Notes: a model not told the origin generated them from the sequence alone. A stretch of 37,179 bases of DNA from Deinococcales bacterium (GCA_043778225.1 JAYWGM010000023.1:1-37179), one strand, 5' to 3'. Counted from the stretch's first letter, positions 253-36,893 are shown. A program made the numbers and translations.

Positions 253-420
253 ATGGCAAAAGATGGACCACGAATTATCATCAAAATGATGTCATCCGCC
301 GGCACTGGTTTCTTTTATGCTTCCGAGAAAAACCGTCGTAACACAACGGCTAAGCTCGAGCTTAAAAAGTACGATCCAATTGCCCGTAAGCACGTTACTT
401 TCAAAGAACAAAAGATTTAA
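253..420 (+). CDS. rpmG: 50S ribosomal protein L33 (Cys-free form)
   Basis: Not in the ORF track; translates [63 protein letters not shown] upstream. Confidence 0.97.
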
Positions 421-422
421 TC

Positions 423-614
423 ATGATCAATTACTTCCGCGAAGCGTGGGAGGAACTGAAACGTGTTTCTTGGCCAACTCGAGAAGAGGTGCTTCAGGGT
501 ACACAGACGGTTTTGCTCTTTTTGTTGATCATGACGCTGATTTTCTGGGCAATGGATGCAATTTTCCGCACCGCTCTGACCAACGGCTTATTTCGTTTGG
601 CATCGGGAGGCTGA
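423..614 (+). CDS. secE: Preprotein translocase subunit SecE
   Basis: ELKRVSWPTREE motif plus one TM helix; between rpmG and nusG. Confidence 0.95.
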   Translation: MINYFREAWEELKRVSWPTREEVLQGTQTVLLFLLIMTLIFWAMDAIFRTALTNGLFRLASGG

Positions 615-616
615 GT

Positions 617-1213
617 ATGGCGATTGAGTGGTACTCGGTTCACACTTATGTTGGGCAAGAAGACAAGGTATCCACCAATGTTGAGCAACGGGCTCGAGCT
701 TTGGGGATGTTTGGCACAAAGATTTTTCAAGTCTTGATTCCGACCGAAGAAAGCACCGAAGCGGGCAAAGTGGGTAAGGACGGCAAGAAAATTGTCGAGC
801 GCAAAAAAACCTATCAAGGGTATGTCTTTGTGCAAATGGATGTCGTTGACCCAGAAGAGCCAGATAAACTCAATGAAGCCTGGGAAACAGTGCGCGGTAC
901 GGCTGGTGTAACTGGTTTTGTTGGCACAAAAAACCCACAGCGTCCAACCGATTTGTTCCCGTTGACGATGGATGAAGTCAATAATCTCTTAAAGCAAGTC
1001 GGGATTATTGAACAAGTCAAAGCCAAAAAAGTCACCGTCAAAGCCAGCTTCAAGGAAGGCGATCAGGTCAAAGTGGTCTCTGGTCCGTTCTCGGATTTTA
1101 CGGGTGTGGTTTCGGAAGTCAATTTGGAGCGCAGCAAACTTAAAGTCTTGGTCAATATCTTTGGGCGTGAAACCCCAGTTGAACTCGAGTTTGCCCAAGT
1201 TGCAAGAAGTTAA
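617..1213 (+). CDS. nusG: Transcription termination/antitermination factor NusG
   Basis: WYSVHTYVGQE N-terminus, GVTGFVG, KOW domain ending NIFGRETPVELEFAQV; start moved to ATG 617 after SD GGAGG. Confidence 0.97.
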   Translation: MAIEWYSVHTYVGQEDKVSTNVEQRARALGMFGTKIFQVLIPTEESTEAGKVGKDGKKIVERKKTYQGYVFVQMDVVDPEEPDKLNEAWETVRGTAGVTGFVGTKNPQRPTDLFPLTMDEVNNLLKQVGIIEQVKAKKVTVKASFKEGDQVKVVSGPFSDFTGVVSEVNLERSKLKVLVNIFGRETPVELEFAQVARS

Positions 1214-1271
1214 TTTTAGATTCAAACGAGCCGCTAGAAACTACTGGCTCGAGCAACACTTCGCGTTAAGC

Positions 1272-1325
1272 ACCCATGTCCGAGATTTCAGACTCGAGTA
1301 GCGGGGAGCGAAGGAGGACAATATG
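1272..1325 (+). promoter_or_regulatory. Probable L1-binding autoregulatory leader of rplK-rplA
   Basis: TGTCC upstream can pair with GGACA at the SD; GGGGAG segment inside; position matches known L11-L1 operon leaders. Confidence 0.4.
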
Positions 1326-1757
1326 GCAAAGAAAGTAACAGGTTTCGTGAAGCTCCAGCTTCCAGCAGGCAAAGCCACGCCAGCCCCACCGGTCGGTCCG
1401 GCACTGGGTCAGCATGGTGCAAACATCATGCAGTTCTGCAAAGATTTTAATGCAGCCACCGCCAATCAGGGCGACGCGATTATCCCAGTCGAAATTACGA
1501 TTTACGCTGACCGCAGCTTTACCCTTGTGTACAAGACCCCGCCGATGAGCTACCTGATTCGTAAAGCCTCGGGGATTGCTAAGGGTTCGGGCGCACCCAA
1601 CAAAAATAAAGTTGGTAAACTCCAATGGGCGCAAGTCCTCGAGATTGCCAAGACCAAAATGCCAGACCTGACGGCTGCCAGCATTGATGCGGCTGCCGAA
1701 ACCGTGGCTGGAACGGCTCGTAGCATGGGCGTGACGATCGAAGGGAGACCATTATGA
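1323..1757 (+). CDS. rplK: 50S ribosomal protein L11
   Basis: [30 protein letters not shown]. Confidence 0.98.
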
Positions 1758-2443
1758 GCGGCAAGCGTTATAAGTTACTGACTGCCAAAGTGGACTCGAC
1801 CAAAAACTACGAAGCATCCGAAGCGACTGTCTTGGTCAAAACCCTCGCCAGTGCCAAGTTTGACGAAACCGTCGAGGTTCATGTCCGTCTTGGTATTGAC
1901 CCACGCAAATCCGACCAGAATGTGCGCGGCACGGTTGCTTTGCCACACGGCACAGGTCGGACAGTTCGGGTGCTTGCTTTGACCAAAGGTGATGGCATTC
2001 CAGCTGCCGAAGCGGCTGGGGCTGACTTTGTTGGCAGTGACGAGTTAATCGCTAAAATTCTTGATGGTTGGCTGGACTTTGATGCGGTCGTTGCTACGCC
2101 AGACATGATGGCAGCAATTGGCTCAAAACTTGGTCGTATCCTCGGTCCTCGTGGTTTGTTGCCAAACCCAAAGAGCGGTACAGTCGGTACAAACATCGGT
2201 GATTTGGTCAAGAGCCTTAAAGCTGGTCAAATCGAATTCCGCAACGATAAAACTGGCGTGGTTCATGCGCCAATCGGCAAGGCATCGTTTGACGCTACAA
2301 AGCTCGAGGAAAACCTCAAAGCCTTTCAAACTGCTTTAGAAGCCGCCAAACCAAGCACTGCCAAAGGCGCATTTGTCAAAAGCCTCTACTTGACTACGAC
2401 CATGGGTCCGAGTGTCAAAGTTGCCACAACCGTTGTTCGCTAA
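1754..2443 (+). CDS. rplA: 50S ribosomal protein L1
   Basis: [48 protein letters not shown]. Confidence 0.98.
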
Positions 2444-2454
2444 GTAACAGCACC

Positions 2455-2486
2455 AAAAGGACGAGGCTCGAGCTTCGTCCTTTTTT
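2455..2486 (+). terminator. Intrinsic terminator after rplA (CTCGAG at the apex)
   Basis: AAAAGGACGAGGC-TCGA-GCTTCGTCC followed by TTTTTT. Confidence 0.85.
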
Positions 2487-2488
2487 GT

Positions 2489-2546
2489 GGCAGCGTATAC
2501 TGCCTTTTATGGCGGCGTATACTGGGCGGCGTATACTGCCTTTATG
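2489..2546 (+). repeat. Three tandem copies of GGCRGCGTATACTG, each with a TATACT -10 box
   Basis: Copies start at 2489, 2511 and 2525. Confidence 0.85.
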
Positions 2547-3155
2547 TTTTTGCTTGACTTGTTGCTGGCGTTTGTTGCCTTTCAAATCCTGATTCGCGTC
2601 TGGTTTCGGCTTTTTCCACAACCGATTCCTTATGGCTGGTCGTGGCTGCTCGAGAATCCATGGCGCAAGGTCTACCGCAATCCAGAACGTACCGCCGACC
2701 AATGTGGCATCCAAAAAACCGATACCGTCCTCGAGATTGGTTGTGGCTCAGGCTTATTTACTCGAGCCTTGGCTTTGCGCTGTGCCAAACTGATTGTCCA
2801 AGACATCGAGCCGCGTTATGTGCAAGAAGCCAAAGCCAAAACCCAAGATTTAAGCCATCTTGAATTTATCAGCACAGATGCCTGCAAGCTCGAGCTAAGC
2901 GCTGTGGCAGACGTGATTGTCTTGATTTCGGTGCTGCCAGAAATCCCTAACCCAGTGCTGGCGCTCGAGCAGTGCCGCAAAGCCCTCAAACCAAATGGGC
3001 ATATGATTATCAGCCAAGAATTGTTTGAACCCGAGTATGTTCCTTCAAGCCAAATAGACGAATGGGCAAAAGCCGCAGGGCTAAAAGTGGTCAGTCATCA
3101 AGGGAATTTTTTGGTCTACCTGAATCGCTATGATAAAATTGCCAATGGAGATTAA
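2544..3155 (+). CDS. Class I SAM-dependent methyltransferase with N-terminal TM/signal segment
   Basis: VLEIGCGSG motif I; TATACT-N6-ATG supports a leaderless start at 2544. Confidence 0.85.
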   Translation: MFLLDLLLAFVAFQILIRVWFRLFPQPIPYGWSWLLENPWRKVYRNPERTADQCGIQKTDTVLEIGCGSGLFTRALALRCAKLIVQDIEPRYVQEAKAKTQDLSHLEFISTDACKLELSAVADVIVLISVLPEIPNPVLALEQCRKALKPNGHMIISQELFEPEYVPSSQIDEWAKAAGLKVVSHQGNFLVYLNRYDKIANGD

Positions 3156-3600
3156 AACCGACGACCTGACCGATGCTCGAGTTGCAGAATTTCTCGAGCA
3201 GCACATAAAAGATATGCGCTCAGTCTCGCCACCCGAAAGTAAGCACGCGCTTGACTTGGCTGGGCTCAAACACCCGAGCATCACTTTTTGGACAGCTTGG
3301 GAGGATGAAACCTTGGTTGGGACTGCCGCGATTAAAGAACTCGAGCCGACTCACGGCGAAATTAAATCAATGCGAACCAATCCAGCTTATCGTGGTCGAG
3401 GTATTGGCTCGAGCCTGCTGACATACCTGATGAATCAAGCCAAAGCTCGAGGCTACCAGCGCTTGAGTTTAGAAACGGGGGCAATGCCATTTTTTGCCCC
3501 CGCTAGAAATTTATATGCTAGGCATGGATTTGTTGTCTGTGAGCCGTTTGCAGATTATAATGCAGACCCTAACAGTGTTTTTATGACCATAAAACCATAA
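3145..3600 (+). CDS. GNAT family N-acetyltransferase
   Basis: GEIKSMRT, YRGRGIG, LSLETG, LYARHGF; TAAAAT-N5-ATG. Confidence 0.9.
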   Translation: MEIKTDDLTDARVAEFLEQHIKDMRSVSPPESKHALDLAGLKHPSITFWTAWEDETLVGTAAIKELEPTHGEIKSMRTNPAYRGRGIGSSLLTYLMNQAKARGYQRLSLETGAMPFFAPARNLYARHGFVVCEPFADYNADPNSVFMTIKP

Positions 3601-3678
3601 GCCGTCAAACTCGCCAGATGTTTCAAAACCAGTGCTACCTTATCTAATGTTATACTGCGCCCATCCGGAGGTACACAT

Positions 3679-4923
3679 ATGGCTGTTCGTACATTAGGCA
3701 TGATTCTCGCAGGGGGTCAAGGCTCGAGGCTTGCTCCTTTAACATCTAAGCGTTCCAAACCAGCAGTCCCGTTTGGTGCAAAGTACCGCATTATTGACTT
3801 TGCGATTAACAATTTTATCAACTCCGAGATTTACAGCATTTATGTGCTGACCCAGTACAAAGCCCAATCCTTGACCGAACATATTCAGCGTGGTTGGCGA
3901 TTTGGTTCGTTCTTATCTGATTACTTTATTACCCTTGTTCCCGCCCAACAATACCGCTTCGAGGAGCTTGGCGCGGTTTGGTATCGTGGCACTGCTGATG
4001 CGATTTGGCAAAATATGCACCTGATCGAAAACTATAAAGCCGACTGCATTGCTATTTTTAGTGGCGACCATATTTATAAAATGAACGTAGACCACATGAT
4101 TCAAGAACATATGGATTCTCGAGCCGATGTCAGCATTGCGGCTTTTCCTGTGCCACTCGAGGAAGCCAGTCGTTTTGGGGTACTTGGGGTGGATGACCGC
4201 AGCCGAATTACCGAATTCCAAGAAAAACCAAAAAATCCATTCCCAATGCCCGGAAAGCCCGACATGGCACTCGCCAGCATGGGCAATTATATTTTTAGCC
4301 GTAAAGCCCTCGAGGATTTACTCGATTTAGATGCTCGAGACGACAACTCGAGCAAGGACTTTGGCAAGGACGTGCTGCCACGTGGTCTGCGCGATGGCTA
4401 TCATTTACACGCTTACGATTTTTTCAAGAACCCAATTCCTGGCACAGACCGCCCAAATACGTATTGGAAAGATGTTGGAACACTGGATGCCTACCACGAA
4501 GCCAGCATGGAACTGATTTCGGTCAATCCAGAATTTGATTTGTACAACCCTGAATGGCCACTGCGTACCGTCAACGCCGATAGTCCCCCCGCCAAGTTTG
4601 TCCACGAATCTGGCGACCGCACCGGACGCGCCCTCAACAGCCTTGTGGCTGGTGGTGTAATTATTTCTGGTGGCACAGTGCGAGATTCGGTGCTTTTTCG
4701 CCGCGCTCGAGTCAATTCGTATTCTTTGGTGCATCGCAGCGTACTGTTTGATGAAGTCGAAGTTGGGCGCAACTGCATTATTCAAAATGCAATTCTTGAC
4801 AAAGACGTAATCGTGCCATCTGGAACAAAAATTGGGGTCAATCTCGAGGAAGACCGTGCCAGAGGCTTTAAGATTACTGATAAAGGTGTGGTTATCGTTC
4901 CTAAAGGCTATAGGTTTGAGTAA
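3679..4923 (+). CDS. glgC: Glucose-1-phosphate adenylyltransferase
   Basis: [51 protein letters not shown]. Confidence 0.97.
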
Positions 4924-5308
4924 AAAATTCTTCTGTCCAATAGTTGTGCGGTTTTCTGACCTTGATATGCTGGGTCATGTCAATAATGCAGTCTTTTTTT
5001 CGTACACCGAATTTGCGCGGCTCGAGTTCTTTGGGCATCTTGGGATTACCGACCAAGCCTTTCCAAGTTGTTTACTGGCTCGAGTTGTGGCGAACCATCT
5101 AAAAGCTGTTCATTACGGCGATGTTGTGCTGATTACAACTTGGGTCTCGAGAGTGGGGCATAAAAGTTTTGCTGTAAACCACGAGGTTTTTGCCAATCAG
5201 ATTCTTTGTGCGACTTTTCAGACGGTACTGGTTTGGTACGACCACGACAGCAAAAGCAGTTTGCCTGTGCCAGATGCGGCAAGGGCAAAATTGCTCGAGT
5301 ATGCTTAG
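4916..5308 (+). CDS. Acyl-CoA thioesterase (4HBT/YbgC hot-dog family)
   Basis: [17 protein letters not shown] motif; probable TTG start overlapping the glgC end. Confidence 0.85.
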
Positions 5309-5475
5309 AGACAAAAAGTAGTTCAAGGCTACGGCATTCGGCTACTCATTTTTAATCCAGAACTCGAGGTGATAACGGCAGGGCATTAAGTTCTAGCATT
5401 CCATTTGCGAACCTAAGCGATTTTCAAAAAGCCATAACCACAACTGACGTTATATAGGTTCGTAATACCAAAATT

Positions 5476-5509
5476 AGAAAAGCGCAACCCAAAACGGGTT
5501 GCGCTTTCT
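5476..5509. terminator. Terminator for amt (likely bidirectional)
   Basis: AAAGCGCAACCC-AAAAC-GGGTTGCGCTTT hairpin between convergent genes. Confidence 0.85.
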
Positions 5510-5522
5510 CCCGAGTTAGAAT

Positions 5523-6968: not shown

Positions 6969-7127
6969 GTATGCCCCCTTGATGCGCCAAAAGCGCGGCT
7001 GAATGGCGGAAGTATAAACAGCAATTTGCAAACTGTCAAGATAAAGCAGTCTATTTGAACAAAATTACTTTACATTTAGGCATACTTGATTAAGACTAGG
7101 GGTAATGTGTCGAGATGTTGTGTCAAA

Positions 7128-7147
7128 TGTACAATAAAAGTTGTACA
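7128..7147. promoter_or_regulatory. Candidate operator palindrome between divergent amt and PII
   Basis: TGTACAA-N6-TTGTACA perfect inverted repeat. Confidence 0.5.
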
Positions 7148-7233
7148 CTCTGCAAAACTGAATTCAACTAGCATCTGCTCGAGTTCAGGCGGTAAACTTC
7201 TCAGGCACACCGCAAAATTTTAGGAGGAAGTCC

Positions 7234-7584
7234 ATGAAATTAATTGTTGCAATTATCCGCCCCGAGAAACTCGATGATGTCAAAGCTGAGTTGTTCAAAG
7301 AAGAGGTGACTGGTCTGACCATTTCTCGAGTCTCTGGTCATGGTGGCGAAAAAGAACACCTTGAGACCTACCGAGGTCGCCCCTTGGTTTTTGAATTCCA
7401 CGAAAAAGTTCGTCTCGAGATTGCCGTCTCTGAGCCATTTGTCGAACGCACCGTCCAAGCCATTGTCCGCAGCGCTCGCAGTGGCGCGGTTGGCGACGGA
7501 AAAATCTTTGTCCAGCCACTCGAGCGCGTGATACGAATCCGCACTGGTGAATCGGACAACGCCGCCCTAACCCCTGTGAGCTAA
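7234..7584 (+). CDS. glnK: Nitrogen regulatory protein P-II (GlnK/GlnB)
   Basis: MKLIVAIIRPEKL, TYRG T-loop, GDGKIFV, RIRTGE; SD AGGAGG. Confidence 0.93.
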   Translation: MKLIVAIIRPEKLDDVKAELFKEEVTGLTISRVSGHGGEKEHLETYRGRPLVFEFHEKVRLEIAVSEPFVERTVQAIVRSARSGAVGDGKIFVQPLERVIRIRTGESDNAALTPVS

Positions 7585-7587
7585 AAG

Positions 7588-7702
7588 CAGGGTTAAAAGT
7601 AGAAAAGTAAAAAAGGTTAAAAGTAAATGCACATCACTTTTAACCTTTTAACCTTTTAACCTTTTAACCTTGCCCTTGCCCTTTAACCCTGCCCTTCGCC
7701 CT
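7588..7702. repeat. Inverted array of octamer repeats between convergent genes
   Basis: GGTTAAAA-like x4 (7591-7622) facing TTTTAACC x4 (7638-7669), then TTGCCC-like units. Confidence 0.85.
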
Positions 7703-8059
7703 TTACATCTTCCCTTCTGAACGCAGTGCAGCCAGGGTTTCGGCACGGTCTGGGATTCTGGGAGTTTCGGGCTGCATTGATTTTTGCTTAGCTAGGGTGT
7801 TCTCGAGTTCTCGGATGCGTTTGTTCATGCGGCGCATTTGGGTCGAGCGACGCACAATGCTTGGCATGGTTAAAAGTAAACCGTACAATAAACCGGTTAA
7901 AAAGCTCAGCAAAATCACCAGACTGACTGGACTCGAGAAACGCCCAAGAATCCATGTCTCGAGAGTCACAAAGACACTGGCATTGTTGAGGTGAACCACA
8001 GCCAAGTAGATGCCACCGAGGATGAGGAGCGCGACTTGAAGGTATTGCAAGGCTTTCAT
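7703..8059 (-). CDS. LapA (DUF1049)-like membrane protein
   Basis: TM-NNxxVxV-(P)-TM-coiled-coil architecture; TACAAT-N7-ATG leaderless start. Confidence 0.7.
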   Translation of the reverse strand: MKALQYLQVALLILGGIYLAVVHLNNASVFVTLETWILGRFSSPVSLVILLSFLTGLLYGLLLTMPSIVRRSTQMRRMNKRIRELENTLAKQKSMQPETPRIPDRAETLAALRSEGKM

Positions 8060-8084
8060 TGCTGCTATTGTAGTATAAATTGTG

Positions 8085-8177
8085 ATGAAAAGATTGCTGA
8101 TGGTGCTGTTGGGTGTTTTAGCGCTTGGCTCGGCTCGAGCCGAAGCGTATTTTAGATTGGGCTTAAATTTTCGGTAA
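8085..8177 (+). CDS. 30-aa putative secreted peptide or OMP remnant
   Basis: MKRLLMVLLGVLALGSARA|EAYFRLGLNFR*: Sec signal with AxA cleavage site; TAGTAT box 8 nt upstream. Confidence 0.55.
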   Translation: MKRLLMVLLGVLALGSARAEAYFRLGLNFR

Positions 8178-8180
8178 ATC

Positions 8181-13900: not shown

Positions 13901-15811
13901 ATGCAGAATTTAAGCAAAAGTAAAGCTGAGCTTATAGGCACGAACCTGAGCTTTGAATACAATAAAATTCGCACTGTTGCAATTCAGCAGTTTTCTCAAG
14001 CTGGTGCAATGGCACTGCAAATAACCAATCTAAAAGCCGCCGCCGTTTGCTGGATTTCAGGCGGAGCGATTGACCTGTTAAGTACCCAAGGTCTAGGACA
14101 GCACTTACTTTCTCGTTTGCCGCCTCGAGATTTAACTTGGTTTATGCCAAAAGCACCGTGCAGCAGTACTGACCAAGCGGTGCTTAGCCCCATTCAAGGT
14201 TTTCTGGGTATCAGTGGCTACCAATTTGTGCTGAGTTTACCGATTTACGCCTACTCGGGCGAAGTCATGGGGGCAATGCTGCTTTTAGACACCAAGCAAG
14301 TCAGCCCAACCGCCGAACAACTCGAGTTGCTCACCAATCTAATCAGCATGGTCATGGTTGGTATAGATGCCACTCGAGAATTGAAATACTATCAAGCAAC
14401 CCAACCAGAATTAACCAAACTTGTCAATCAGTTACCCTTAATTTTTTTACGAACCAACCAATTTGGGCAGCTTGACTTTATTGGCGGTGGTGCATTTACC
14501 CAATGGCAAACCCAAGGAATTCTTTCCAAAAATAAAAATTTTGTCGGCGATGAAGTTTTTGCACGTAAAGTTTATTCGCCAGCCCTCCAAGAAGCCATTC
14601 GCCAAGCCATGCAGGGACAAACCGTTCACACCATCCTCGAGTGGCGCGACCAGACGCTCAGCACTTTGGTACGTCCGATAGACCCCGAGCATCCAGCCCA
14701 AGGTGTTTTGGGGGTTGGTTTGGACATCACCCAATTACCGAGTGCCAAAAAACTAGACGATTATCGAATTCTTGAGAATGCTGTACAAAACAGCAATGAA
14801 CTGATTTTAATTACCGATGCCCAAATCGAATTGCCGGGTCCGCAAATTACTTTTGCCAATTTAGCGCTCTTAAAACAGACTGGCTACGAAATAGCCGAAC
14901 TACTTGGTCAAACCCCTCGGATGTTACAAGGCGCACAGACCAACCGCACCATGCTTGCTGAGTTAAAACTGGCGCTCAAAAGCGGACAGCCATTTCGCGG
15001 ACAAACCACCAATTACCGCAAAAATGGCAGCACCTATATGGTTGAATGGGACATCAGCCCAGTGTTGGATGAGACTGGTCAGATTACCCATTTTTTAAGT
15101 ATTCAGCGCGATATTTCTGAGCGGATTAAGCTCGAGCGATTGCTCGAAGACCTGAGAAACAGCTTGGATGGCAAGCGAGACAGTCAACTAGCCGTTGAGC
15201 AAATCGAAACCCAGCTTGCCACGATTCAAGCTCAACTCAAAAATGGTCAGATGCAGGGGCATCTCGAGAATTTAGGTGGGGCTGTCATTTTACTACAGAT
15301 GCTTTCGGTGGCACATTCGAGTGGTGCGATTCATTTTGAGCGGGCTGATACCCACCAGTATAGTGGCACACTTTATTTGCTAGACGGACGAATTGTATCG
15401 GTCGAACACCCAAATCTGAGTGGAAAAGCAGCCGTTATGGATTTATTGCAACTCGAGCGAGGCAGTTTTTTATTGGACACCCATGCAACACCCAAAGAAC
15501 GCCGTTTTGACCTTGACCCAACGGCTTTATCGCTTGAATTGGCTCGAGACCAAGATGAATTGCTCGAGCAGCAACGCCAGGTGCTACAAAATAAAGAAGC
15601 CAACACAGACCAAAGCAATGTTCTGGTTTTGCCACACCTAGATGCCGCCACCAGTTTTATGCGTGGGGTCGGCGGCGAAAGCTATTTTACTGCCAGTTTT
15701 GAAACACAAACAGGTTGGACGGACAAAAAACTGGTGCTGCGTGGCAGAGGCTTTATGTTGGTGGTGCTTGAAGGTGGCTTGGCAAATTTACCCCAAGGCA
15801 TCAAAACATAA
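13901..15811 (+). CDS. GAF-PAS-PAS sensor with C-terminal DUF4388 (PatA-N)-like domain
   Basis: GAF-like LPI..GEVMGAMLLLD; PAS/PAC ITDA..ITFAN..TGY..LGQTPRMLQG..NYRKNGS..IQRDISER; GxL..LLQML..SG..GTLYLLDGRIV..GSF. Confidence 0.75.
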   Translation: MQNLSKSKAELIGTNLSFEYNKIRTVAIQQFSQAGAMALQITNLKAAAVCWISGGAIDLLSTQGLGQHLLSRLPPRDLTWFMPKAPCSSTDQAVLSPIQGFLGISGYQFVLSLPIYAYSGEVMGAMLLLDTKQVSPTAEQLELLTNLISMVMVGIDATRELKYYQATQPELTKLVNQLPLIFLRTNQFGQLDFIGGGAFTQWQTQGILSKNKNFVGDEVFARKVYSPALQEAIRQAMQGQTVHTILEWRDQTLSTLVRPIDPEHPAQGVLGVGLDITQLPSAKKLDDYRILENAVQNSNELILITDAQIELPGPQITFANLALLKQTGYEIAELLGQTPRMLQGAQTNRTMLAELKLALKSGQPFRGQTTNYRKNGSTYMVEWDISPVLDETGQITHFLSIQRDISERIKLERLLEDLRNSLDGKRDSQLAVEQIETQLATIQAQLKNGQMQGHLENLGGAVILLQMLSVAHSSGAIHFERADTHQYSGTLYLLDGRIVSVEHPNLSGKAAVMDLLQLERGSFLLDTHATPKERRFDLDPTALSLELARDQDELLEQQRQVLQNKEANTDQSNVLVLPHLDAATSFMRGVGGESYFTASFETQTGWTDKKLVLRGRGFMLVVLEGGLANLPQGIKT

Positions 15812-15845
15812 GTAAAGCTAAATTACTTTGAACCAATTCTCAGCA

Positions 15846-15871
15846 GAGCAGACCCCTGTGTCTGCCCCTAC
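15846..15871 (-). repeat. GTAG-type REP-like palindrome
   Basis: Minus strand reads GTAGGGGCAGACACAGGGGTCTGCTC. Confidence 0.6.
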
Positions 15872-15991
15872 ACGTAATTTCTTCGTATTGATACCTCATA
15901 AATCTGCATTCCCACTTAACTTTTTTCTGCTCGAGTATGCCCAAGCCATCCAAACGTATTTTGCCTTACATTAAATTTCAACTCGAGCTAA

Positions 15992-28678: not shown

Positions 28679-29387
28679 AGCCTTGTTGAGTGTCCAAAAT
28701 TTAGACCTTGCTTACGGCGATGTTCAAGTGGTGTTTGGGGTCTCGCTCGAGGTTCATGAGCGCGAACTGGTTGGTTTGGTTGGCGGCAACGGCAGTGGTA
28801 AAAGCACCATTCTACGGGCGGTCTCGGGGATGCTGAAAGCCAAAGCGGGCAGCATGACCTATCAAAAAAGCAGCATCAACGGCATCACACCACACAAATT
28901 AACCGACCTTGGGATAGCCCATGTGCCGATGGGCAGACAACTCTTTGGGGCAATGACGGTCGAAGAAAACCTCGAGATGGGGGCATATTTACCGCGCTGC
29001 AAGCCAAAGCGCAAAGAAAACCTCGAGAAAGTCTATGCTTTTTTTCCGCGCTTACTCGAGAAGCGCAAGCTCTTTGCGGGGGCATTATCGGGTGGCGAAC
29101 AACAGATGATTGCCATAGGACGCGCCCTGATGAGCGAACCCAAGTTACTTTTGATGGACGAACCCAGCCTAGGACTTGCGCCCAAAGTGGTACAGGAAGT
29201 GATGCAGGTGATTGACAGTTTGCGGCAGTTACAATTAACTGTGTTGTTGGTCGAACAAAACGTGCGCCAAGTCTTAAAAGTGACCGACCGCGCCTATGTT
29301 CTCGAGCATGGCAAGTTGATTATTACCGGCAACAGCAAGGATTTATTGCAAAATCCAGAGATTAAAAGGGCGTATCTTGGGCTTTAA
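28671..29387 (+). CDS. livF: LIV ABC ATP-binding protein (LivF-like)
   Basis: GGNGSGKST, LSGGEQQM, DEPSLGLAP, VEQN. Confidence 0.92.
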   Translation: MTEALLSVQNLDLAYGDVQVVFGVSLEVHERELVGLVGGNGSGKSTILRAVSGMLKAKAGSMTYQKSSINGITPHKLTDLGIAHVPMGRQLFGAMTVEENLEMGAYLPRCKPKRKENLEKVYAFFPRLLEKRKLFAGALSGGEQQMIAIGRALMSEPKLLLMDEPSLGLAPKVVQEVMQVIDSLRQLQLTVLLVEQNVRQVLKVTDRAYVLEHGKLIITGNSKDLLQNPEIKRAYLGL

Positions 29388-29388
29388 G

Positions 29389-30741: not shown

Positions 30742-30757
30742 TGACGGTTATTCTAAA

Positions 30758-32284
30758 TTATTTAATTTCCCATGTGTTGATAAACTCGTCGCCTCGAGCT
30801 TTATAGCTGTAGCCACTCGAGATAGCGTGAATCACATTTTCGTAATGCAGTGGAATCCAAAAAATATCGTTTTGCAAAATTTGGCGCATCGCTTGACTGA
30901 CTAATCTATTGCGCTCGAGTGGATTAAAGTTGCTGGCGGCTGCCAGAATCAGTTTGTCCACTTCTTTGTTGCAGTACCCCGCCCGGTTAAGCGAACCAAA
31001 ACCTTCGGCTGCATTTTTGCACATCGCTTGGGAAACCAAGGTGTTGACCAAATCGCTCGAAGCCCACCCACTGATATAAGCGCTAAATTCGCCACGGTCT
31101 AACTGCGGAAAAAGCACCGTGCGACTGATGGCATTGACTTTGGTTTTGATGCCGATTTTCTCGAGCATTGCGCCAACCGCTTGGGCAATCAGGCTGTCGT
31201 TCTGGTAACGATCGTTGGTGGCATCAAGGCGCAGCCCAAAACCATTGGGGTAGCCGCTTTCGGTCAGTAGCGCCTTTGCTTTCTCGAGGTTGTAGTTTGG
31301 GTTTTTGATACCACGGTCAAAGCCAGCCACATTTGGAGCAACAAATTGTGTGGCTGGGGTGGCATAACCGCCCATGATGCTTTTGACAATTAAATTTTTA
31401 TCGATGGCTCGAGCCACAGCTTCGCGCACTTTGAGATTGCTAAAAGGATTATTGTTTGCGCCAGTCACGGCGGGGCTACTCTGCGGGCTGCGAAGATCCA
31501 TGACCAAATAAATCACACGGTTGCTAGGGGCTTGGGTCACTTCGTAAGCCTTGTTGCTCGAGATACGCGCCACATCTTGCGGTGCAATTTTTTCGATTAG
31601 CTGCACCTGATTAGAAATTAAGGCTGCCACTCGAGCCGCCGGATTAGGGATGTTTTGTAACCGAACCCGCTTTTGACTCGGCACGCCGCCCCAATAGTTG
31701 GCGTTTGCCTCAAGCAATAAGTTATCGCCCGACAGCCAAGAAACAAATTTATACGCCCCCGAGCCAATTGGTTTTTCTGCCCAAGCTGGATTATTCTCGA
31801 CTTGCTTTTTTGAAACCACCAAAATCCCGACCATTTTATTTGGCAGCAGTGGGTCTGGGCGTTCGGTGATGACCTCGAGCGTAAAGTCGCCAATCGCTTT
31901 CAGGCTTTTGATGCTCGAGACACTGCTTCTAAAAGTGCTTTTTGGCTCGTTTTGGGCGCGGTTAATGCTAAAAATCACATCGGCAGCGGTCAGGCTCGAG
32001 CCATCATGAAATTTGGCATCGCGGCGCAGAATAAAAGTCCATTTGTTTGTGCCTTGAGCCGTCCAAAGCTGGGCTATGCCAGCTTGGATTCGTCCGTTGG
32101 AATCGGTTTTTGTAATCGAATCAAAAATATGTTGCTGCCAATTGATTGTGGTGGTCTCGAGTCGTAAAATCGGGTCAAGGGTTGTGGCTGCGCCCTGAAA
32201 ACCGACGGTAAACAAAGGTGTCTGCGCTTGGGCAACCAAGCCAATCACTACAAAAACTGCCAGCGCCATCAAGTATCGTTTCAC
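30758..32284 (-). CDS. Family 5 (DppA/OppA-like) ABC substrate-binding protein, orphan
   Basis: LDP, KFHDG..TAADV.FS, PIGSGAYKF, KVREAVARAIDK. Confidence 0.92.
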   Translation of the reverse strand: MKRYLMALAVFVVIGLVAQAQTPLFTVGFQGAATTLDPILRLETTTINWQQHIFDSITKTDSNGRIQAGIAQLWTAQGTNKWTFILRRDAKFHDGSSLTAADVIFSINRAQNEPKSTFRSSVSSIKSLKAIGDFTLEVITERPDPLLPNKMVGILVVSKKQVENNPAWAEKPIGSGAYKFVSWLSGDNLLLEANANYWGGVPSQKRVRLQNIPNPAARVAALISNQVQLIEKIAPQDVARISSNKAYEVTQAPSNRVIYLVMDLRSPQSSPAVTGANNNPFSNLKVREAVARAIDKNLIVKSIMGGYATPATQFVAPNVAGFDRGIKNPNYNLEKAKALLTESGYPNGFGLRLDATNDRYQNDSLIAQAVGAMLEKIGIKTKVNAISRTVLFPQLDRGEFSAYISGWASSDLVNTLVSQAMCKNAAEGFGSLNRAGYCNKEVDKLILAAASNFNPLERNRLVSQAMRQILQNDIFWIPLHYENVIHAISSGYSYKARGDEFINTWEIK

Positions 32285-32335
32285 GAGCGCGAAGTATGCG
32301 CCACTTTGCGGCTGAATTCAAGTCCAAAAAAGGAC

Positions 32336-32381
32336 TTTCTCCCTTTTTGCCTTTTCACTTTTTCCCCTGCCTTTTTTGCCC
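32336..32381. repeat. Degenerate pyrimidine octamer array
   Basis: TTTCTCCC TTTTTGCC TTTTCACT TTTTCCCC ... TTTTTGCCC. Confidence 0.5.
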
Positions 32382-32433
32382 AGTGTGCAAGCGCCACAAA
32401 ACAGGCTATACTATCCGCCACACCTCGGAGGTG

Positions 32434-33108
32434 ATGACAGTAGCTAAAGACCACAAAATCAACGATCAAATTCGTGTTCGTCAGGTACGTTTAATTGATG
32501 ACGAAGGCGGACAGATCGGTATTATTGACACTCGAGACGCGATGAAAATGGCGACCGAGAAGAATCTGGATTTGGTGATGGTTTCGCCAAATACTGTGCC
32601 GCCCGTCTGCCGTTTGCTCGATTATGGCAAATTTAGGTTTGAGGCACAGCAACAGGAAAAAGAGGCACGCAAGCGAGCCAGAAACCAAGAAGTCAAGTCT
32701 ATTAAACTGCGCGTTAAAATTGGCGATGGCGATTTTGACACCAAGCTCAATCATGTCAAGCGCTTTTTGAAGGATGGACACAAAGTTAAAATTACGATCA
32801 TGTTCCGTGGTCGTGAACGCACCCACCCAGAATTGGGCGAGCGCTTGTTGACTCGAGCCGCCGAAACGCTTGGTGATTATGCCTTGATCGAAAGCCCGCC
32901 GTTGCTGGCTGGCATGGACATGAACATGATGGTTGCGCCAACCCCCAAAGCCGCGACCATGAAGCTCAAAGCCTCAGATGCGCCACCCCCTGAAGATGAT
33001 GACGACAACGATGACGATAGCCCCGAAGCCGAGGCACAAGAAGCCGAAGCCATTGTGCCAGAAACCGTTGTGCCAGAAACTCCAGAAACAGCCCCTCAAA
33101 GCGCTTAG
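32434..33108 (+). CDS. infC: Translation initiation factor IF-3 with acidic C-terminal tail
   Basis: INDQIRVRQVRLI, LDLVMV..PPVCRLLDYGKF, MFRGRE; true start may be GTA 32440. Confidence 0.96.
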   Translation: MTVAKDHKINDQIRVRQVRLIDDEGGQIGIIDTRDAMKMATEKNLDLVMVSPNTVPPVCRLLDYGKFRFEAQQQEKEARKRARNQEVKSIKLRVKIGDGDFDTKLNHVKRFLKDGHKVKITIMFRGRERTHPELGERLLTRAAETLGDYALIESPPLLAGMDMNMMVAPTPKAATMKLKASDAPPPEDDDDNDDDSPEAEAQEAEAIVPETVVPETPETAPQSA

Positions 33109-33119
33109 AAATAGCCCAT

Positions 33120-33147
33120 AAAACGCGCCTTGTGTGGGCGCGTTTTT
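33120..33147. terminator. Bidirectional terminator between infC and pgeF
   Basis: AAAACGCGCCT...GGGCGCGTTTT. Confidence 0.8.
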
Positions 33148-33901
33148 ACTTTTGGCAGATTAAATTCCACATTCGCCCTGTTTGACCATGGTCGCGGCGG
33201 TACGAAAAATAGTCGGTTGCGGTGCTGCATTGCTCGCTTGACCAAATCTGTGGCGGCGGTACTCCCAAGGACTCGAGCAACCACCGATTGGCACTGGCAA
33301 GGTCTAAATGAAATAACCTCGAGCCACTGTCAGAAATGCCTTCTTCTTCTATCAAACGGTTGGTCGGAAAGCCAGCCTCGATAAACTGCTCGAGAACATC
33401 CATCCGTACTGGGTATTGCCCAGCACAGATTCCAGGTCCAATCGCAACCCGCAGATGTTCTGGCTTTGCACCAAGCTGCATCATCTCGAGGATTGTTTTC
33501 TCGAGAATCCGCGTGGCTGTGCCACGCCAACCGCAATGCGCCGCCGCAATCACCCCCGCTTGTCTGTCCTCGAGCAGCACGGGGTAGCAGTCGGCAGTCT
33601 CGATCACCAAGGCAATGTTTTTTTGGTCAGTCACCAGTGCGTCGGCAGCGATTGGTTCGGAGGCTGCCAAAACCGAATCAGCCTGAACCACCAGACTTGA
33701 GTGAATTTGGCGCAACAATGCCACCGAAGCATTTTCTAAACCAAGTGCCGAAAGTGCCAAAGCACGATTCTCGAGAACATGGTTTATTTGGTCGCCAACA
33801 CGATTCGAGAGGTTTAAGCTACTGTACGCCCCAAGGCTTTTTCCGCCATCGCGCTGGCTAAAACCATGGGTGTTCTCGAGGTGGGGACTTTGCAGCCACA
33901 T
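33146..33901 (-). CDS. pgeF: Peptidoglycan editing factor / purine nucleoside phosphorylase (YfiH)
   Basis: HGFSQR.GG.S, QIHS, TADCYPV, AHCGWRG, IGPGI, FSYRR; TAGACT-N6-ATG. Confidence 0.92.
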   Translation of the reverse strand: MWLQSPHLENTHGFSQRDGGKSLGAYSSLNLSNRVGDQINHVLENRALALSALGLENASVALLRQIHSSLVVQADSVLAASEPIAADALVTDQKNIALVIETADCYPVLLEDRQAGVIAAAHCGWRGTATRILEKTILEMMQLGAKPEHLRVAIGPGICAGQYPVRMDVLEQFIEAGFPTNRLIEEEGISDSGSRLFHLDLASANRWLLESLGVPPPQIWSSEQCSTATDYFSYRRDHGQTGRMWNLICQK

Positions 33902-34081
33902 AAGCGCAGTCTAACTCGAGTTTTAGATTTGGCTCTCAGATGACTTGCTTTTTATGTGATTGACAAGTATTTTAGACTTTATGTTTGCAAGCCGTGTGAA
34001 AAATAGCCATCGTTGGTCGCTTAGTTCTGCTAGACTGGGTGCAATGCCTAGTCTAATGATACCAACATGGAGGGGAGAGCC

Positions 34082-35800
34082 ATGACCGAAGTGCAAATCT
34101 CGCCGTTAGCTAAACGACTCGCCGAGGAGAACTCGATTGATTGGCGTAAAATACGGGGTACAGGACCTGAAGGTCGAGTCATTGAACGCGACATCCTGAC
34201 GTATTTAGCCCGAATCATGTCTGGTGAAGCCGATTTACCCGCCGAGCCAGATAAGTCTGAGCCAGCCGGTCCCTCGAGTATGCCAGCCGCCGTACCGGGC
34301 AATGTCGCTAATTTTGCGGCTGCCAGTGCTGGGCTTGCCAAAGAAGGGGTGGATTTAAGTGCTTTAATCGGTGGTTTCCCCGCCGTGGCAGCCACTTCTA
34401 TTTATCAGACCCCACCGCCACCTTTGGATTTTGGTTCGCTCGAGCTAAGTGCGCCCGAAGTTCCTGTGGTTGCTCCGCCTGTGGTTGTTTCACCTCTGGT
34501 CAGTCGCAGCTTTAGCGAAGAACCAGTTTTTGAAATAGATTTTGACGACTTAACCGATGATGAGCCAGAAATTGTTTTTGAGAACCCAACAGTCGAAGCG
34601 GTCATTCCAGAGCCAGCGTGGACAGCCCCAGAACCAGTTGTGCCAGCATGGACAGCCCCAGAGCCAGTCATACCAGCATGGACAGCCCCAGTCATCCCAG
34701 AGCCAGTGATTCCAGAACCAATTGTGCCAGCGTGGACAGCGCCCATGATTCCAGAACCAGTTGTGCCAGCCTGGACTGCCCCTGAACCTGCTGTTCTCGA
34801 GCCAGTTGTGCCAGCATGGACTGCGCCAGTAATCCCTGAGCCAGTTATGCCAGCATGGACTGCGCCAGAACCAGTGGTTGTTCCTGAGCCAGTTTGGACT
34901 CCTGCTGCAAAAATTGAGCCAGCCCTGCCGGTCTGGACAGCCCCGGTTATCCCTCAACCCGTTATTGTTCCCGAACCAGTCTGGATAATGCCAGAAGCCG
35001 CCACACCCGAGCCAGTTCTGCCAGCTATTCCAGTTTGGACAATGCCAGAACCTGTGGCTGTGCCAGAACCTATTTTTGTGCCAGTCCCAGAACATGTGGT
35101 TATGCCAGCCCCCATTCTCGAGCCAGTTATCCCAGAGTCAGTATTTGTTGCACCAGAGCCAGTATTTGTTGCCCCAGAGCCAACTTTTGTTGCACCACCC
35201 GCTTTTGAACCTGTGGTTGTGCCAGTCCCAGAACCTGTGGTTGTGCCAGAAGAATTTGCGCCAATCGCAGTGGTCGTTGCTCCTTTGGCTGCTCCCTCGA
35301 GTTTTAGTATGCCAAGTTCAGGTGTGCTGAACGACTTCTTCCAATTGTTTGTGGCTCGTCGAGAATTTAACCCGCAGCCACTCGAGGCTATTCGCGGGCA
35401 GCTTTCGCTCAGCCTCAACAACCGTGAAATTCCAAGCGAACTCTTTTTGGCTCGAGCCGTTGGACGAGCGCTGCATTTGCTTGAGACTGAACAATTTACC
35501 CTTGCTCGACTCGAGTCCAGTGGTTTACAAGCCTATCAAGTGGTTGGTTTCCAACATGGCTTCCTCGAAGCCTTGCAAGGTCTTTCTCGAGCCACCCAAG
35601 GAACAGCCAATGGATTACTGGTCGTGGATGCCTCGAGACTGGGCGTGGACGATTTGGTCTTGCCAAATGCCTTGGGTGTGCTTGCCCTTGGTCGCCACGG
35701 CAAGCTGACTTTATCGGGCAACTTGCCACCATTACAAAGCACCGAATTTTTGCATAAAGTGGCTGAACTGCTCGAGAATCCGGTTGGGCTGGTGGTTTAA
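34082..35800 (+). CDS. E3-binding (PSBD) domain protein with Pro/Val/Glu-rich repeats
   Basis: ISPLAKRLAEENSID...GTGPEGRVIERDI; central PEPVVPAWTA repeats; SD GGAGG. Confidence 0.85.
   Translation: MTEVQISPLAKRLAEENSIDWRKIRGTGPEGRVIERDILTYLARIMSGEADLPAEPDKSEPAGPSSMPAAVPGNVANFAAASAGLAKEGVDLSALIGGFPAVAATSIYQTPPPPLDFGSLELSAPEVPVVAPPVVVSPLVSRSFSEEPVFEIDFDDLTDDEPEIVFENPTVEAVIPEPAWTAPEPVVPAWTAPEPVIPAWTAPVIPEPVIPEPIVPAWTAPMIPEPVVPAWTAPEPAVLEPVVPAWTAPVIPEPVMPAWTAPEPVVVPEPVWTPAAKIEPALPVWTAPVIPQPVIVPEPVWIMPEAATPEPVLPAIPVWTMPEPVAVPEPIFVPVPEHVVMPAPILEPVIPESVFVAPEPVFVAPEPTFVAPPAFEPVVVPVPEPVVVPEEFAPIAVVVAPLAAPSSFSMPSSGVLNDFFQLFVARREFNPQPLEAIRGQLSLSLNNREIPSELFLARAVGRALHLLETEQFTLARLESSGLQAYQVVGFQHGFLEALQGLSRATQGTANGLLVVDASRLGVDDLVLPNALGVLALGRHGKLTLSGNLPPLQSTEFLHKVAELLENPVGLVV
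34600..35270 (+). repeat. Coding tandem repeats (about 30 bp; PEPV(V/I)PAWTA, then PEPVFVA)
   Basis: Visible in both DNA and protein. Confidence 0.9.
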
Positions 35801-35815
35801 GAAGGAAGAAAAATT

Positions 35816-35850
35816 AAAAGAGGGAAAGCAAGTTGCTTTTCCTCTTTTTT
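35816..35850 (+). terminator. Intrinsic terminator
   Basis: AAAAGAGGGAAAGCAA-G-TTGCTTTTCCTC then TTTTTT. Confidence 0.85.
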
Positions 35851-35915
35851 GTTAAGCGCAATGGCTTAACTAACTTAAAGCAATCTTTCATTTCTCTTTG
35901 CTCTATAATACCTCA

Positions 35916-36656
35916 GTGAGTCGTTACCGTACCCGAAGTGGCATTGTGCTGCGCCGCAAAGCCACCCCAACTGGTGATGTGGTGCTGTCTCTCCTGACTC
36001 CAGAAGGGAAGTTGCGCGGTGTGGCTCGAGCCGGGGCTAAAAATGGTTTGGCGGCGAAAGTTAATCTGTTTCATCATTTGACCGTCCAAGTTTATTTGCG
36101 CCCGGGCAACGACATGGCGCTGCTTTCAGAAATTATTCTCGAGGGCGCACTCGAGCGACTGACCCAGCCCGAGGTTTACCCATACGCCCACTGGTTAGCC
36201 GAACTTGCCGATAAAATGTACCAAGAAGACGACCACGTTGGGCAAGCTGGCTTTGAACTGGTCAGTGGCGGACTGCGCGGCTTAGCGCGGCACGAAGACC
36301 CCAACCGTGTGGCACTGGTGATGGCATGGAAACTACTTGGGGCGCACGGACTTTACCCCAGAGTCTCGAGTTGCCCAGACACAGGACAAACCGATTGTGT
36401 GCGTTTTGATGTGCAGCGCGGCAGCGTCAGCGCCCAATCTGGGTTGCACATCGGCGAAGATGCGATTTGGGAACTGCGCCGTATTCAAGCCGAAACAGTG
36501 CGCGAAATTTTGCTCGAGCCACTGGAAAGCAGCACCCGTCAAGCCCTTTGGCGGATTCTCGAGCCATATATTGGAACGCACGTTGGCAGTATGCAGGCGT
36601 GGGCAGCCATGAAAGAGCAGTTTGAAGGTAAGAAGCTCGAGTTGGTTAGTCAATAA
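35916..36656 (+). CDS. recO: DNA repair protein RecO
   Basis: GIVLRR...GDVVLSLLTPEGKLRGVAR..NLFHH OB-fold; TATAAT-N6-GTG. Confidence 0.9.
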   Translation: MSRYRTRSGIVLRRKATPTGDVVLSLLTPEGKLRGVARAGAKNGLAAKVNLFHHLTVQVYLRPGNDMALLSEIILEGALERLTQPEVYPYAHWLAELADKMYQEDDHVGQAGFELVSGGLRGLARHEDPNRVALVMAWKLLGAHGLYPRVSSCPDTGQTDCVRFDVQRGSVSAQSGLHIGEDAIWELRRIQAETVREILLEPLESSTRQALWRILEPYIGTHVGSMQAWAAMKEQFEGKKLELVSQ

Positions 36657-36677
36657 CTTCTGATTTACACTCGAGCC

Positions 36678-36893
36678 ATGCCCCAAGTTTTAGAAGCCTT
36701 AATCGAAACAAATGGCGAAATTCGCTTACTCGAGCCGATAAAGCTCAGTCACAAACAACGCGCTTTGGTTACAATTCTGGACGAATCCCAACCTCGAGTA
36801 CGTTCAAAGTACGCGGGGGCATTCGCCAGTGGTCAGACTGATACATCGGCTCGAGTGGATGAAGTGCTGGAAGAACTTGGTTTTGCCCAATGA
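36678..36893 (+). CDS. Putative antitoxin (AF2212/DUF104-like)
   Basis: 71 aa; LEALIETNGEIRLLEPIKL..LVTI beta motif; ATGA-coupled to the PIN gene. Confidence 0.7.
   Translation: MPQVLEALIETNGEIRLLEPIKLSHKQRALVTILDESQPRVRSKYAGAFASGQTDTSARVDEVLEELGFAQ

Follow-up and report, generated by a model that had tools for sequence, protein, structure and literature searches.

The palindrome CTCGAG is hyper-iterated throughout the genomes of one family of uncultured Deinococcales

Introduction

The six-base palindrome CTCGAG was found to be iterated at extreme density in a 37,179-nucleotide stretch of DNA from a Deinococcales bacterium (GCA_043778225.1, JAYWGM010000023.1:1-37179). This stretch is called the window below, and it is the entire contig C23 (C23:1-37179) of the source genome assembly, G000. 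The results indicated, with near certainty, that CTCGAG is a real hyper-iterated palindrome across this genome and its family, and that it is under a directional force specific to the word. The initial annotation of the window had compared CTCGAG with the highly iterated palindrome (HIP) of cyanobacteria, HIP1 (GCGATCGC), and had proposed a dedicated mechanism, possibly coupled to a methylase. One part of that proposal stood, since a force on the DNA word itself, beyond coding, was required by the data. The coupling to a methylase was not supported.

We searched open-access text for earlier accounts and found no report of CTCGAG hyper-abundance there. No open-access text was found that paired CTCGAG with the term highly iterated palindrome, and none of the open-access matches listed on CTCGAG over-representation in Deinococc*, Thermus or Meiothermus was relevant. 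Open-access texts that named both iterated palindromes and Deinococc* concerned cyanobacteria.

Results

CTCGAG in the window and in the genome

The program counted 219 CTCGAG sites in the window (5.9/kb). In 100 dinucleotide-preserving shuffles, the expected number was 4.89 ± 2.10 and the maximum was 12. The sites spread over the entire window (355–36855, no strand assigned), with the first at 355–360 and the last at 36850–36855. Successive 10-kb stretches of the window held 62, 56, 49, and 52 sites. These counts agreed with the initial annotation, in which about 60 sites had been counted by hand in the first 10 kb and a similar density had been judged to continue to the window end. The DNA of the window was also present in two biofilm metagenome runs of one study.

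The same density was observed in the whole of G000 (4.03 Mb, 107 contigs, GC content 48.7%, 89% complete). The genome carried 24,877 CTCGAG sites, or 6.2/kb, which was 26.7 times the zero-order expectation of 0.23/kb, so that the term highly iterated palindrome was borne out at both scales. CTCGAG was the top hexamer in G000 and stood threefold above the next one, and the next ten hexamers were mostly overlaps of CTCGAG itself. All 107 contigs carried at least 3 sites/kb. Since CTCGAG is the XhoI site, this corresponded to one XhoI site about every 160 bases.

The favoured unit is the bare hexamer

The composition of the DNA around the sites was near background at positions −10 to −1 and +1 to +10. 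This meant that the iterated unit was the hexamer alone, with no longer repeat around it. Among 8-mers, the only one clearly short in number was CCTCGAGG, with 243 copies in G000. In DNA outside open reading frames (ORFs), CTCGAG reached 31.8 times the zero-order expectation. One-off variants, a comparison suggested by the initial annotation, were 13–75 times rarer than CTCGAG in this noncoding DNA at all three symmetry-unique positions, and transition neighbours were the commonest of them. These results showed that all six positions of CTCGAG are favoured.

The frequency of the inner tetramer TCGA did not account for the excess, although the initial annotation had named this as an explanation that could overturn its reading. 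In G000, 24,877 of the 36,442 TCGA tetramers (68%) lay inside CTCGAG. The remaining 11,565 were fewer than the zero-order expectation of about 15,700.

Coding sequence does not account for CTCGAG

CTCGAG could be a by-product of codon usage, of dipeptides, of TCGA richness, of a dispersed repeat, or of an assembly or linker artefact. Two observations spoke for such an origin. The observed/expected ratio under the maximal-order Markov expectation was just 1.16 in G000. In addition, CTC and GAG were favoured codons in the GC-rich relatives G022 and G023, where the word reached 2–3 times the zero-order expectation and did not exceed the synonymous shuffles. However, the Markov ratio was uninformative because the pentamers on which it is built were dominated by CTCGAG itself, and shuffling of codons gave a clear result. 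ORFs of at least 100 aa, chosen greedily by length, were used as stand-ins for genes (3,500 ORFs, 3.58 Mb; not an annotation), and codons were shuffled synonymously within each ORF so that the protein and the per-gene codon counts were kept. Genome-wide, the ORFs contained 22,156 CTCGAG sites against 2,307–2,433 in ten synonymous shuffles (9.2-fold). In the window, 38 ORFs supported by Pfam contained 204 sites against 20.4 ± 3.9 in 500 synonymous shuffles, with a maximum of 33. The excess thus stayed at 9–10-fold under codon-preserving shuffles, where the initial annotation had noted that its reading would fall if the excess vanished.

The DNA outside ORFs gave a consistent result. The density of CTCGAG in G000 was 6.17/kb in ORFs and 6.15/kb outside, and it was flat at 5–8/kb across gene starts, stops, and spacers. 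The class outside ORFs takes in small genes, as the last four sites of the window show. These sites (36670, 36729, 36793, and 36850; 36670–36855, no strand assigned) lie in a short ORF below the 100-aa cut-off of the list. DNA without open frames of 100, 60, and 40 codons carried 5.6, 4.6, and 3.1 sites/kb, respectively, compared to 0.23/kb under the zero-order expectation.

The word occurred in all three reading frames. Genome-wide, 13,056 sites were read as CTC GAG, and the other two frames held 4,468 and 4,632. In the 38 ORFs of the window, 123 sites were CTC GAG, 40 were nCT CGA Gnn, and 41 were nnC TCG AGn, and 18 sites lay outside these ORFs. The occurrence in every frame and in intergenic DNA was therefore as the initial annotation had described it. 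The ORF at 317–1213 matched NusG and KOW and is nusG, and it held an example of each frame on the plus strand. The site at 1184–1189 (offset 867 from 317) reads CTC GAG, Leu-Glu, which is the commonest class. The site at 693–698 (offset 376) reads nCT CGA Gnn, and the first site of the window, 355–360 (offset 38), reads nnC TCG AGn. Two intergenic sites, at 1248 and 1293 (1248–1298, no strand assigned), lie in the spacer between the end of nusG at 1213 and the start of rplK at 1323. A further site, 2467–2472, lies within a predicted intrinsic-terminator hairpin after rplA (2451–2489, plus strand). The predicted fold placed this site at the apex with the loop UCGA, where the initial annotation had put it. 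The hairpin had a folding energy of −21.7 kcal/mol and a z-score of −5.2, none of 200 shuffles folded as well, and a T-run follows it.

Codon use pointed in the same direction. Outside the motif, Leu was encoded by CTC in 9.3% of cases and Glu by GAG in 23.7% in G000, which predicts that 2.2% (0.093 × 0.237) of Leu-Glu dipeptides should be spelled CTCGAG. In fact, 69% of the 18,909 Leu-Glu dipeptides were spelled in this way. By our own arithmetic, the odds ratio of this spelling bias was near 100. The opinion in the initial annotation that protein coding does not explain the word was supported by the shuffles and by the density outside ORFs. Together with the random flanks, the presence on every contig, the share of TCGA held inside CTCGAG, and the orthologous sites in metagenome-assembled genomes (MAGs) of different records, these results refuted the by-product and artefact readings, whose probability we place close to nil. 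A strong and uniform directional force acts on the full six-base word, and its effect is the same in genes, in each frame, and in spacers.

Conservation and turnover of the sites and their effect on proteins

The initial annotation had suggested that orthologs be aligned to follow substitutions at the motif. We compared G000 with one relative of the same genus, G003, of which 382 kb out of 4.5 Mb were sampled, giving 202 one-to-one ortholog pairs. The mean amino acid identity of the pairs was 84%, and the identity at codon positions 1, 2, and 3 was 85, 92, and 57%. Of 1,315 aligned G000 sites, 770 were kept as CTCGAG in G003 (58.6%), compared to 28.4% for all hexamers. At conserved Leu positions, 72% of the CTC codons within the motif were retained, compared to 34% elsewhere. 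At conserved Glu positions, the retention of GAG was 77% within the motif and 44% elsewhere. The sites were thus conserved above background.

Gains were also frequent. Both genomes had Leu-Glu at 899 conserved positions, and CTCGAG was the spelling at 73% of these in G000 and 62% in G003. The probability of CTCGAG in G003 was 0.73 when G000 had the motif and 0.33 when it did not. The higher retention and the latter value of 0.33 meant that the sites were protected and also often gained. This looked like an equilibrium of turnover far from the neutral value of 2%.

The force reaches proteins. Leu-Glu was the most over-represented dipeptide of G000, with an observed/expected (O/E) ratio of 2.33, compared to 0.97 for Glu-Leu. 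The proteins were also aligned to 116 orthologs from an outgroup of ten non-family samples, which include kin and are therefore not all independent. Leu-Glu was exclusive to G000 in 452 cases and exclusive to the outgroup in 232. The corresponding numbers for Glu-Leu were 153 and 205. Among the 452 Leu-Glu dipeptides found only in G000, 332 were spelled CTCGAG. Leu-Glu was thus roughly doubled in the proteins.

Spacing of the sites along the DNA

Gaps between sites in G000 were near exponential, with a mean of 161, a median of 117, and a coefficient of variation of 1.0, and the sole period in them was 3. Counts per kb were Poisson-like (index of dispersion 0.97), and the index was 1.4–1.5 at 5–10 kb. 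Autocorrelation faded within about 3 kb, and the 27 contigs of at least 60 kb showed no periodicity over the lags tested (up to 40 kb), by a test simpler than that of Xu et al. and on contigs too short for the upper part of the range of 10–90 kb. No arrays or tandem structures were found in G000, where the densest 1-kb windows held 19 sites.

At short range, the sites showed mutual repulsion. When two Leu-Glu dipeptides were neighbours, the odds ratio of a CTCGAG spelling in both was 0.09 at 6–12 nt, 0.37 at 12–21 nt, 0.76 at 21–30 nt, and about 1 at 45–60 nt. Pairs at gap 6 were absent from G000. Such a pair would create GAGCTC, which is itself rare, with only 24 sites in the genome. In contrast, pairs at gap 7, CTCGAGNCTCGAG, occurred 123 times, compared to 30, 33, 53, and 49 pairs at gaps 8, 9, 10, and 11. 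The middle base of these pairs was random, and their flanks were unique in all but one case. Two copies of the palindrome can form a 6-bp hairpin, and a hairpin with a 1-nt loop cannot fold. For this reason, we interpret the repulsion as hairpin avoidance and not as a protein footprint.

These data bear on the idea that CTCGAG is the selected binding site of an abundant dimeric protein of the nucleoid, of chromosome organisation, or of repair, as Xu et al. proposed for HIP1. The sites were conserved above background, which is the argument made for HIP1 in the available part of Xu, Lawrence and Durand 2018 (PMC5861425). The even density in coding and noncoding DNA agrees with this idea, and the repulsion of neighbours could be caused by a footprint or by diminishing returns. 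However, the spacing was near exponential and not regular, with no periodicity at the lags tested, and the excess at gap 7 made hairpin avoidance the simpler reading of the repulsion. Strongly constrained genes were poor in CTCGAG, with 1 site each in rplK and rplA. Moreover, odds of about 100 at about 25,000 sites would be hard to sustain by a marginal benefit at each site. For these reasons we consider a selected binding site quite unlikely.

Long gaps were more numerous than expected. Motif-free gaps of more than 2 kb numbered 11 in G000 against 0.1 expected. Nine of them had a GC content of 0.31–0.39. The other two, at 0.43 and 0.46, were DNA of ordinary composition, and one of these lay within an ORF of 5,180 residues. 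The nine CTCGAG-free gaps of low GC content are probably recently imported islands, and the other two do not suggest this. The motif-free stretches were 2–5.6 kb in length (for example, C44:57429-63066, C41:55252-59552, and C40:7693-11073, with eight more). The stretch on C40 carried a methylase gene with a GC content of 0.32 and internal stop codons.

Distribution of the excess across the order

Comparison of ribosomal protein L11 placed the window close to MAGs recorded as Deinococcales bacterium (92, 89, and 87% identity), and one MAG recorded as Deinococcaceae bacterium gave 84%. Records of Deinococcus gave 81–82% and those of Thermaceae 73–74%. The nearest named records were thus Deinococcales MAGs, and the placement in Deinococcota by the initial annotation was right.

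We surveyed 31 genomes of the order, of which 19 belong to the family of the window (uncultured Deinococcales, five genera). The MAGs were 57–94% complete. All 19 family genomes carried 4.3–6.8 CTCGAG sites/kb, and the reversed word GAGCTC was almost absent from most of them. Other families of the order carried 0.03–2.9 sites/kb. The ratio of observed sites to synonymous shuffles was calculated on small samples of 19–60 kb per genome. It was 5.1 for G013 of the same family, 5.4 for G027, 4.0 for G030, 2.1 for G021, 1.8 for G025, 1.7 for G019, and 1.0 for G023. The ratio was 0.69 for the Thermus-sized genome G022 and 0.26 for the Deinococcus-like genome G020. The Deinococcus-like family avoided CTCGAG, with 128–457 sites in genomes of 4.2–4.8 Mb. 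The excess is therefore extreme in the family of the window and weaker in other parts of the order, and one family shows the inverse.

Methylases, Vsr and XhoI-type genes

The coupling to a methylase corresponds to the HIP model of Elhai, in which marked CTCGAG sites would be resolved by repair toward the word so that near-cognates are ratcheted into it. The repair arm would be either mismatch repair that uses the mark for strand choice or short-patch repair. According to Elhai 2015 (PMC4390886), a methylase of matching specificity accompanies HIP1 and also each of the alternate HIPs, and a methylation-dependent mismatch-repair ratchet is proposed that saturates near 1 site/kb. Methylation at the word itself is known, as 5-methylcytosine at CTCGAG is reported for Halorubrum in PMC8112702.

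Methylase genes were abundant in G000, with at least 22 methylase-like genes. Five were full C5 genes, about five belonged to the beta class (N4/N6), three to the D12 class, and about nine to the gamma class. Among the gamma-class genes were type I M subunits, MmeI-like genes, two Type-ISP-like genes, and a single gene of the TaqI_C type. NCBIfam gave only generic names for 11 of the G000 methylases. Two proteins of about 1,000–1,070 aa (C99:49951-52971 and C1:34616-37834) combined a methylase domain with a C-terminal specificity domain of Type ISP. In the C99 protein there was a Type ISP coupler domain as well, and Pfam detected no nuclease or helicase part in either protein.

Nine methylase queries, covering all four Pfam DNA-methylase classes of G000, were traced through the 31 genomes; the type I enzymes, the MmeI-like enzymes, and two D12 enzymes were left untraced. 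None of the nine was found family-wide in the 19 family genomes. The gamma-class enzyme of the TaqI_C type, which has an N-terminal helix-turn-helix, was a candidate for a CTCGAG or TCGA enzyme. It was present in just 3 of the 19 family genomes and was rejected on that ground. C5_a was found in 7 of the 8 genomes of the genus and in no others among the 31, and C5_b was sporadic among family genomes. In G002, G010, G011, and G014, neither C5 search gave a match at 1e-20. The beta-class enzymes f, h, and g were found in 2, 2, and 4 of the 19 family genomes, and D12_t in 3. Close orthologs of the Type-ISP-like enzyme were sporadic and occurred in 4 of the 19. Genes of the D12 class were found in all six family genomes examined for them. 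A 285-aa D12 form common to G013, G011, G009, and G014 had no ortholog in G000 (26% identity). Among the methylases compared between the single-contig genome G013 and G000, no common one exceeded 33% identity. The motif density in methylase genes was also tried as a clock of their residence, and it failed because most genes carried 3–7 sites/kb.

Searches for Vsr gave no match in any of the 19 family genomes. The XhoI nuclease family (PF04555) was not found in them either. Across the order it occurred in 7 genomes out of 301, and 5 of the 7 belong to one sister family. At six loci, a nuclease of the XhoI family was convergently paired with a beta-class N4/N6 methylase, and five of these loci were in the sister family f4. 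One such pair was located in G021 on its contig C1 (L172:4897-5835, plus strand, and L172:5772-6794, minus strand), and the others were at L173, L174, and L164–L166. In G000, which is 89% complete, no homologue of the XhoI-linked methylase was found beyond a motif stretch of 65–74 residues. G021 possesses the XhoI-type pair, yet CTCGAG there was 2.1 times the synonymous shuffles and was not depleted.

These results meant that the methylase repertoire varies from genome to genome, like restriction systems, while the CTCGAG excess stays uniform. The MAGs were 57–94% complete, so absence from any single genome is weak evidence. The coupling to a methyltransferase was not borne out by the nine queries, Vsr and the XhoI nuclease were not found in the 19 family genomes, and the XhoI-linked methylase was not found in G000. 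In favour of methylation-coupled repair there remain the number of methylase genes, the D12-class methylases of the six family genomes, and the consideration that methylases of one specificity can diverge widely, so that non-orthologous replacement may occur. Against it also stands the density of 6/kb compared to the value of about 1/kb that follows from the mismatch-repair argument in the accessible part of Elhai's article (PMC4390886). We regard this mechanism as unlikely.

The palindrome purge and other features of the window

CTCGAG was the sole strong exception in a genome purged of palindromes. In G000, 34 of the 64 palindromic hexamers were below 0.1 of the zero-order expectation and 51 were below 0.3. 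Among non-palindromic hexamers, 86 of 4,032 were equally rare, and most of those listed contained GGCC. GGCC itself had 131 sites in 4 Mb (O/E 0.01), and GATC had an O/E of 0.13. The window contained no GAGCTC, 2 GGCC, and 23 GATC. The large number of methylase genes is consistent with heavy traffic in restriction systems.

Short intergenic elements, about 100 bp in length, were observed at 7583–7705 and 15811–15938 of the window. Copies of 75–83% identity were present on many G000 contigs and in relatives of the same genus. These elements share an AAGTAAA...TTACTTT core and matched no Rfam family. Scans of the window against Rfam and for tRNA gave no matches. At positions 1–100, about 30 codons remain of the 3' end of a gene, and their translation resembles the C-terminus of elongation factor Tu. 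The first 99 bases also start contig C78, and two copies were present in relatives, so that a duplicated gene probably broke the assembly at the window start. At the other end, two short overlapping ORFs follow recO (36680–37100, with an ATGA overlap at 36890), and by their arrangement they look like a putative small toxin-antitoxin pair. A search for related loci with the PAS protein as query gave no match. A candidate for AddAB, an adjacent pair of genes of about 1,100 aa on C104, proved to encode RCC1-repeat and FG-GAP proteins. Viral contigs carried clusters of three CTCGAG in at least 131 stretches. The 79 loci of at least 3 kb among these mostly had a GC content of 0.55–0.72; most of those listed also carried GAGCTC and GGCC, and none of those listed had the signature of the family.

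A DdrB-like gene adjoins dprA in G000 (C89:20114-24828, L177). A 277-aa ORF of no known family lies 1.3 kb downstream of dprA and has a 4-base overlap with a 380-aa methylase of the D12 class. Since the 277-aa ORF has one CTCGAG and the D12 gene overlaps it, the two are probably an inserted restriction-modification pair.

Discussion

The closest analogue of CTCGAG is HIP1. Both are short palindromes that contain G and C, and both are far over-represented (15–300-fold for HIP1 in the available part of PMC5861425 and 27-fold here). Both occur in genes and spacers, are conserved above background, are found lineage-wide, and are missing from imported DNA. However, HIP1 has eight letters and CTCGAG six, and HIP1 belongs to cyanobacteria and CTCGAG to another phylum. 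HIP1 reaches about 1/kb according to the accessible text of PMC4390886, compared to 6.2/kb here. The methylases DmtA and DmtC are named for HIP1 in the part of the literature available, whereas no conserved cognate methylase was found here. Xu, Lawrence and Durand 2018 (PMC5861425) concluded from the conservation of HIP1 that it is under selection, and the same portion of their article gives a periodicity of 10–90 kb, whereas none was detected here at lags up to 40 kb. A role of HIP1 in DNA exchange has been proposed more recently. Kamoku and Nielsen 2024 (bioRxiv 10.1101/2024.09.10.611283), in the text available, reported that HIP1 raises natural transformation in Synechococcus PCC 7002, largely in a methylation-dependent manner, and proposed uptake and Chi-like mechanisms for this effect. 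In the accessible part of Rodriguez-Cruz et al. 2026 (PMC13756078), HIP1 abundance correlates with 'Type IV secretion system' proteins, and a role as an uptake sequence is proposed. CTCGAG is listed among the methylated motifs of hot-spring communities in bioRxiv 10.64898/2026.06.24.734251, the available portion of which is silent on abundance. The near-total purge of other palindromic hexamers seen here sets CTCGAG apart from HIP1.

Other known systems share some of these properties. The DNA uptake sequences (DUS) of Neisseriaceae and the uptake signal sequences (USS) of Pasteurellaceae are, like CTCGAG, words of a lineage that are distributed through the chromosome on both strands, are rare in foreign DNA, and can be explained by a molecular drive of biased uptake together with recombination. 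The DUS and USS often form terminators as inverted pairs. The flanks of CTCGAG are free of information. Chi, which is read by RecBCD or AddAB, is also a short and frequent 'self' word that could spare a cell's own DNA and promote recombination. Dcm and Vsr at CCWGG in E. coli are a case in which a repair enzyme raises the frequency of its own word. In contrast, Vsr was found in no family genome and C5 enzymes were not family-wide, and all six positions of CTCGAG are favoured and not the deamination position alone. Restriction-modification of the XhoI type recognises the same word, and the pair is present in the sister family, but neither gene was found in the family of the window. Restriction normally depletes its own site and gives no enrichment.

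Given the odds of about 100 at about 25,000 sites, a drive would fit better than a benefit at each site. Candidate drives would be biased uptake, biased recombination, or biased repair. Our tentative preference is for a molecular drive tied to DNA exchange, through uptake or a Chi-like step, which we hold as possible and no better than that. In such a drive, DNA that bears CTCGAG would be favoured by a protein that works as a symmetric dimer, either during uptake or at the step where transforming DNA recombines. The word would then serve as a 'self' word in the manner of DUS, USS, or Chi. Alleles with CTCGAG would replace alleles without it throughout the shared chromosome, and foreign DNA, with about 0.23 sites/kb compared to 6.2, would be disfavoured. 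We favour exchange because its analogue HIP1 has experimental support for such a role, because the repair mechanism found no carrier here, and because 6.2 against 0.23 sites/kb would distinguish the cell's own DNA from foreign DNA on any kilobase-sized fragment.

Several points weigh against this preference. No receptor or reader protein has been identified for CTCGAG. ComEC and DprA are present in G000, but they do not discriminate because the same searches were positive in 10 and 11 of 14 control genomes, respectively. Known uptake sequences are 9–12 nt long, non-palindromic, and present at about 1/kb, whereas CTCGAG is a palindrome of 6 nt at 6.2/kb. Chi is asymmetric and oriented with replication, and a palindrome cannot be oriented, so that no strand skew is possible for CTCGAG. 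Uptake in Thermus and Deinococcus is reported to be independent of sequence. Biased repair and selection leave the same pattern of substitution as a drive, so that the comparison of G000 with G003 does not tell them apart. Finally, the effect of HIP1 on transformation is methylation-dependent in the available text of bioRxiv 10.1101/2024.09.10.611283, and no conserved methylase was found here.

A broader reading would make hyper-iterated palindromes a general and convergent system of 'self words', in which a reader that needs no conserved methylase drives CTCGAG by DNA exchange. We consider this extension rather doubtful. The case is informative in itself. HIP1 has remained unexplained for three decades, and its study rests on one phylum and essentially one word. 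CTCGAG provides a second, independent, and stronger case in another phylum with another word, with no conserved cognate methylase found and with relatives that range from avoidance to extreme excess. The rival explanations are thereby open to a comparative test. The order is graded from avoidance, through no excess in Thermus-like genomes and 2–5-fold excess in three families, to 9-fold here, and this gradient, if true, would be a natural experiment for the responsible gene.

The finding also has consequences for work with these genomes, since an XhoI site every 160 bases or so affects cloning, k-mer binning, and gene-finding models. The absence of CTCGAG flags imported DNA. Where present, the word is the main influence on codon-pair usage, and proteins have gained Leu-Glu pairs by the thousand through it.

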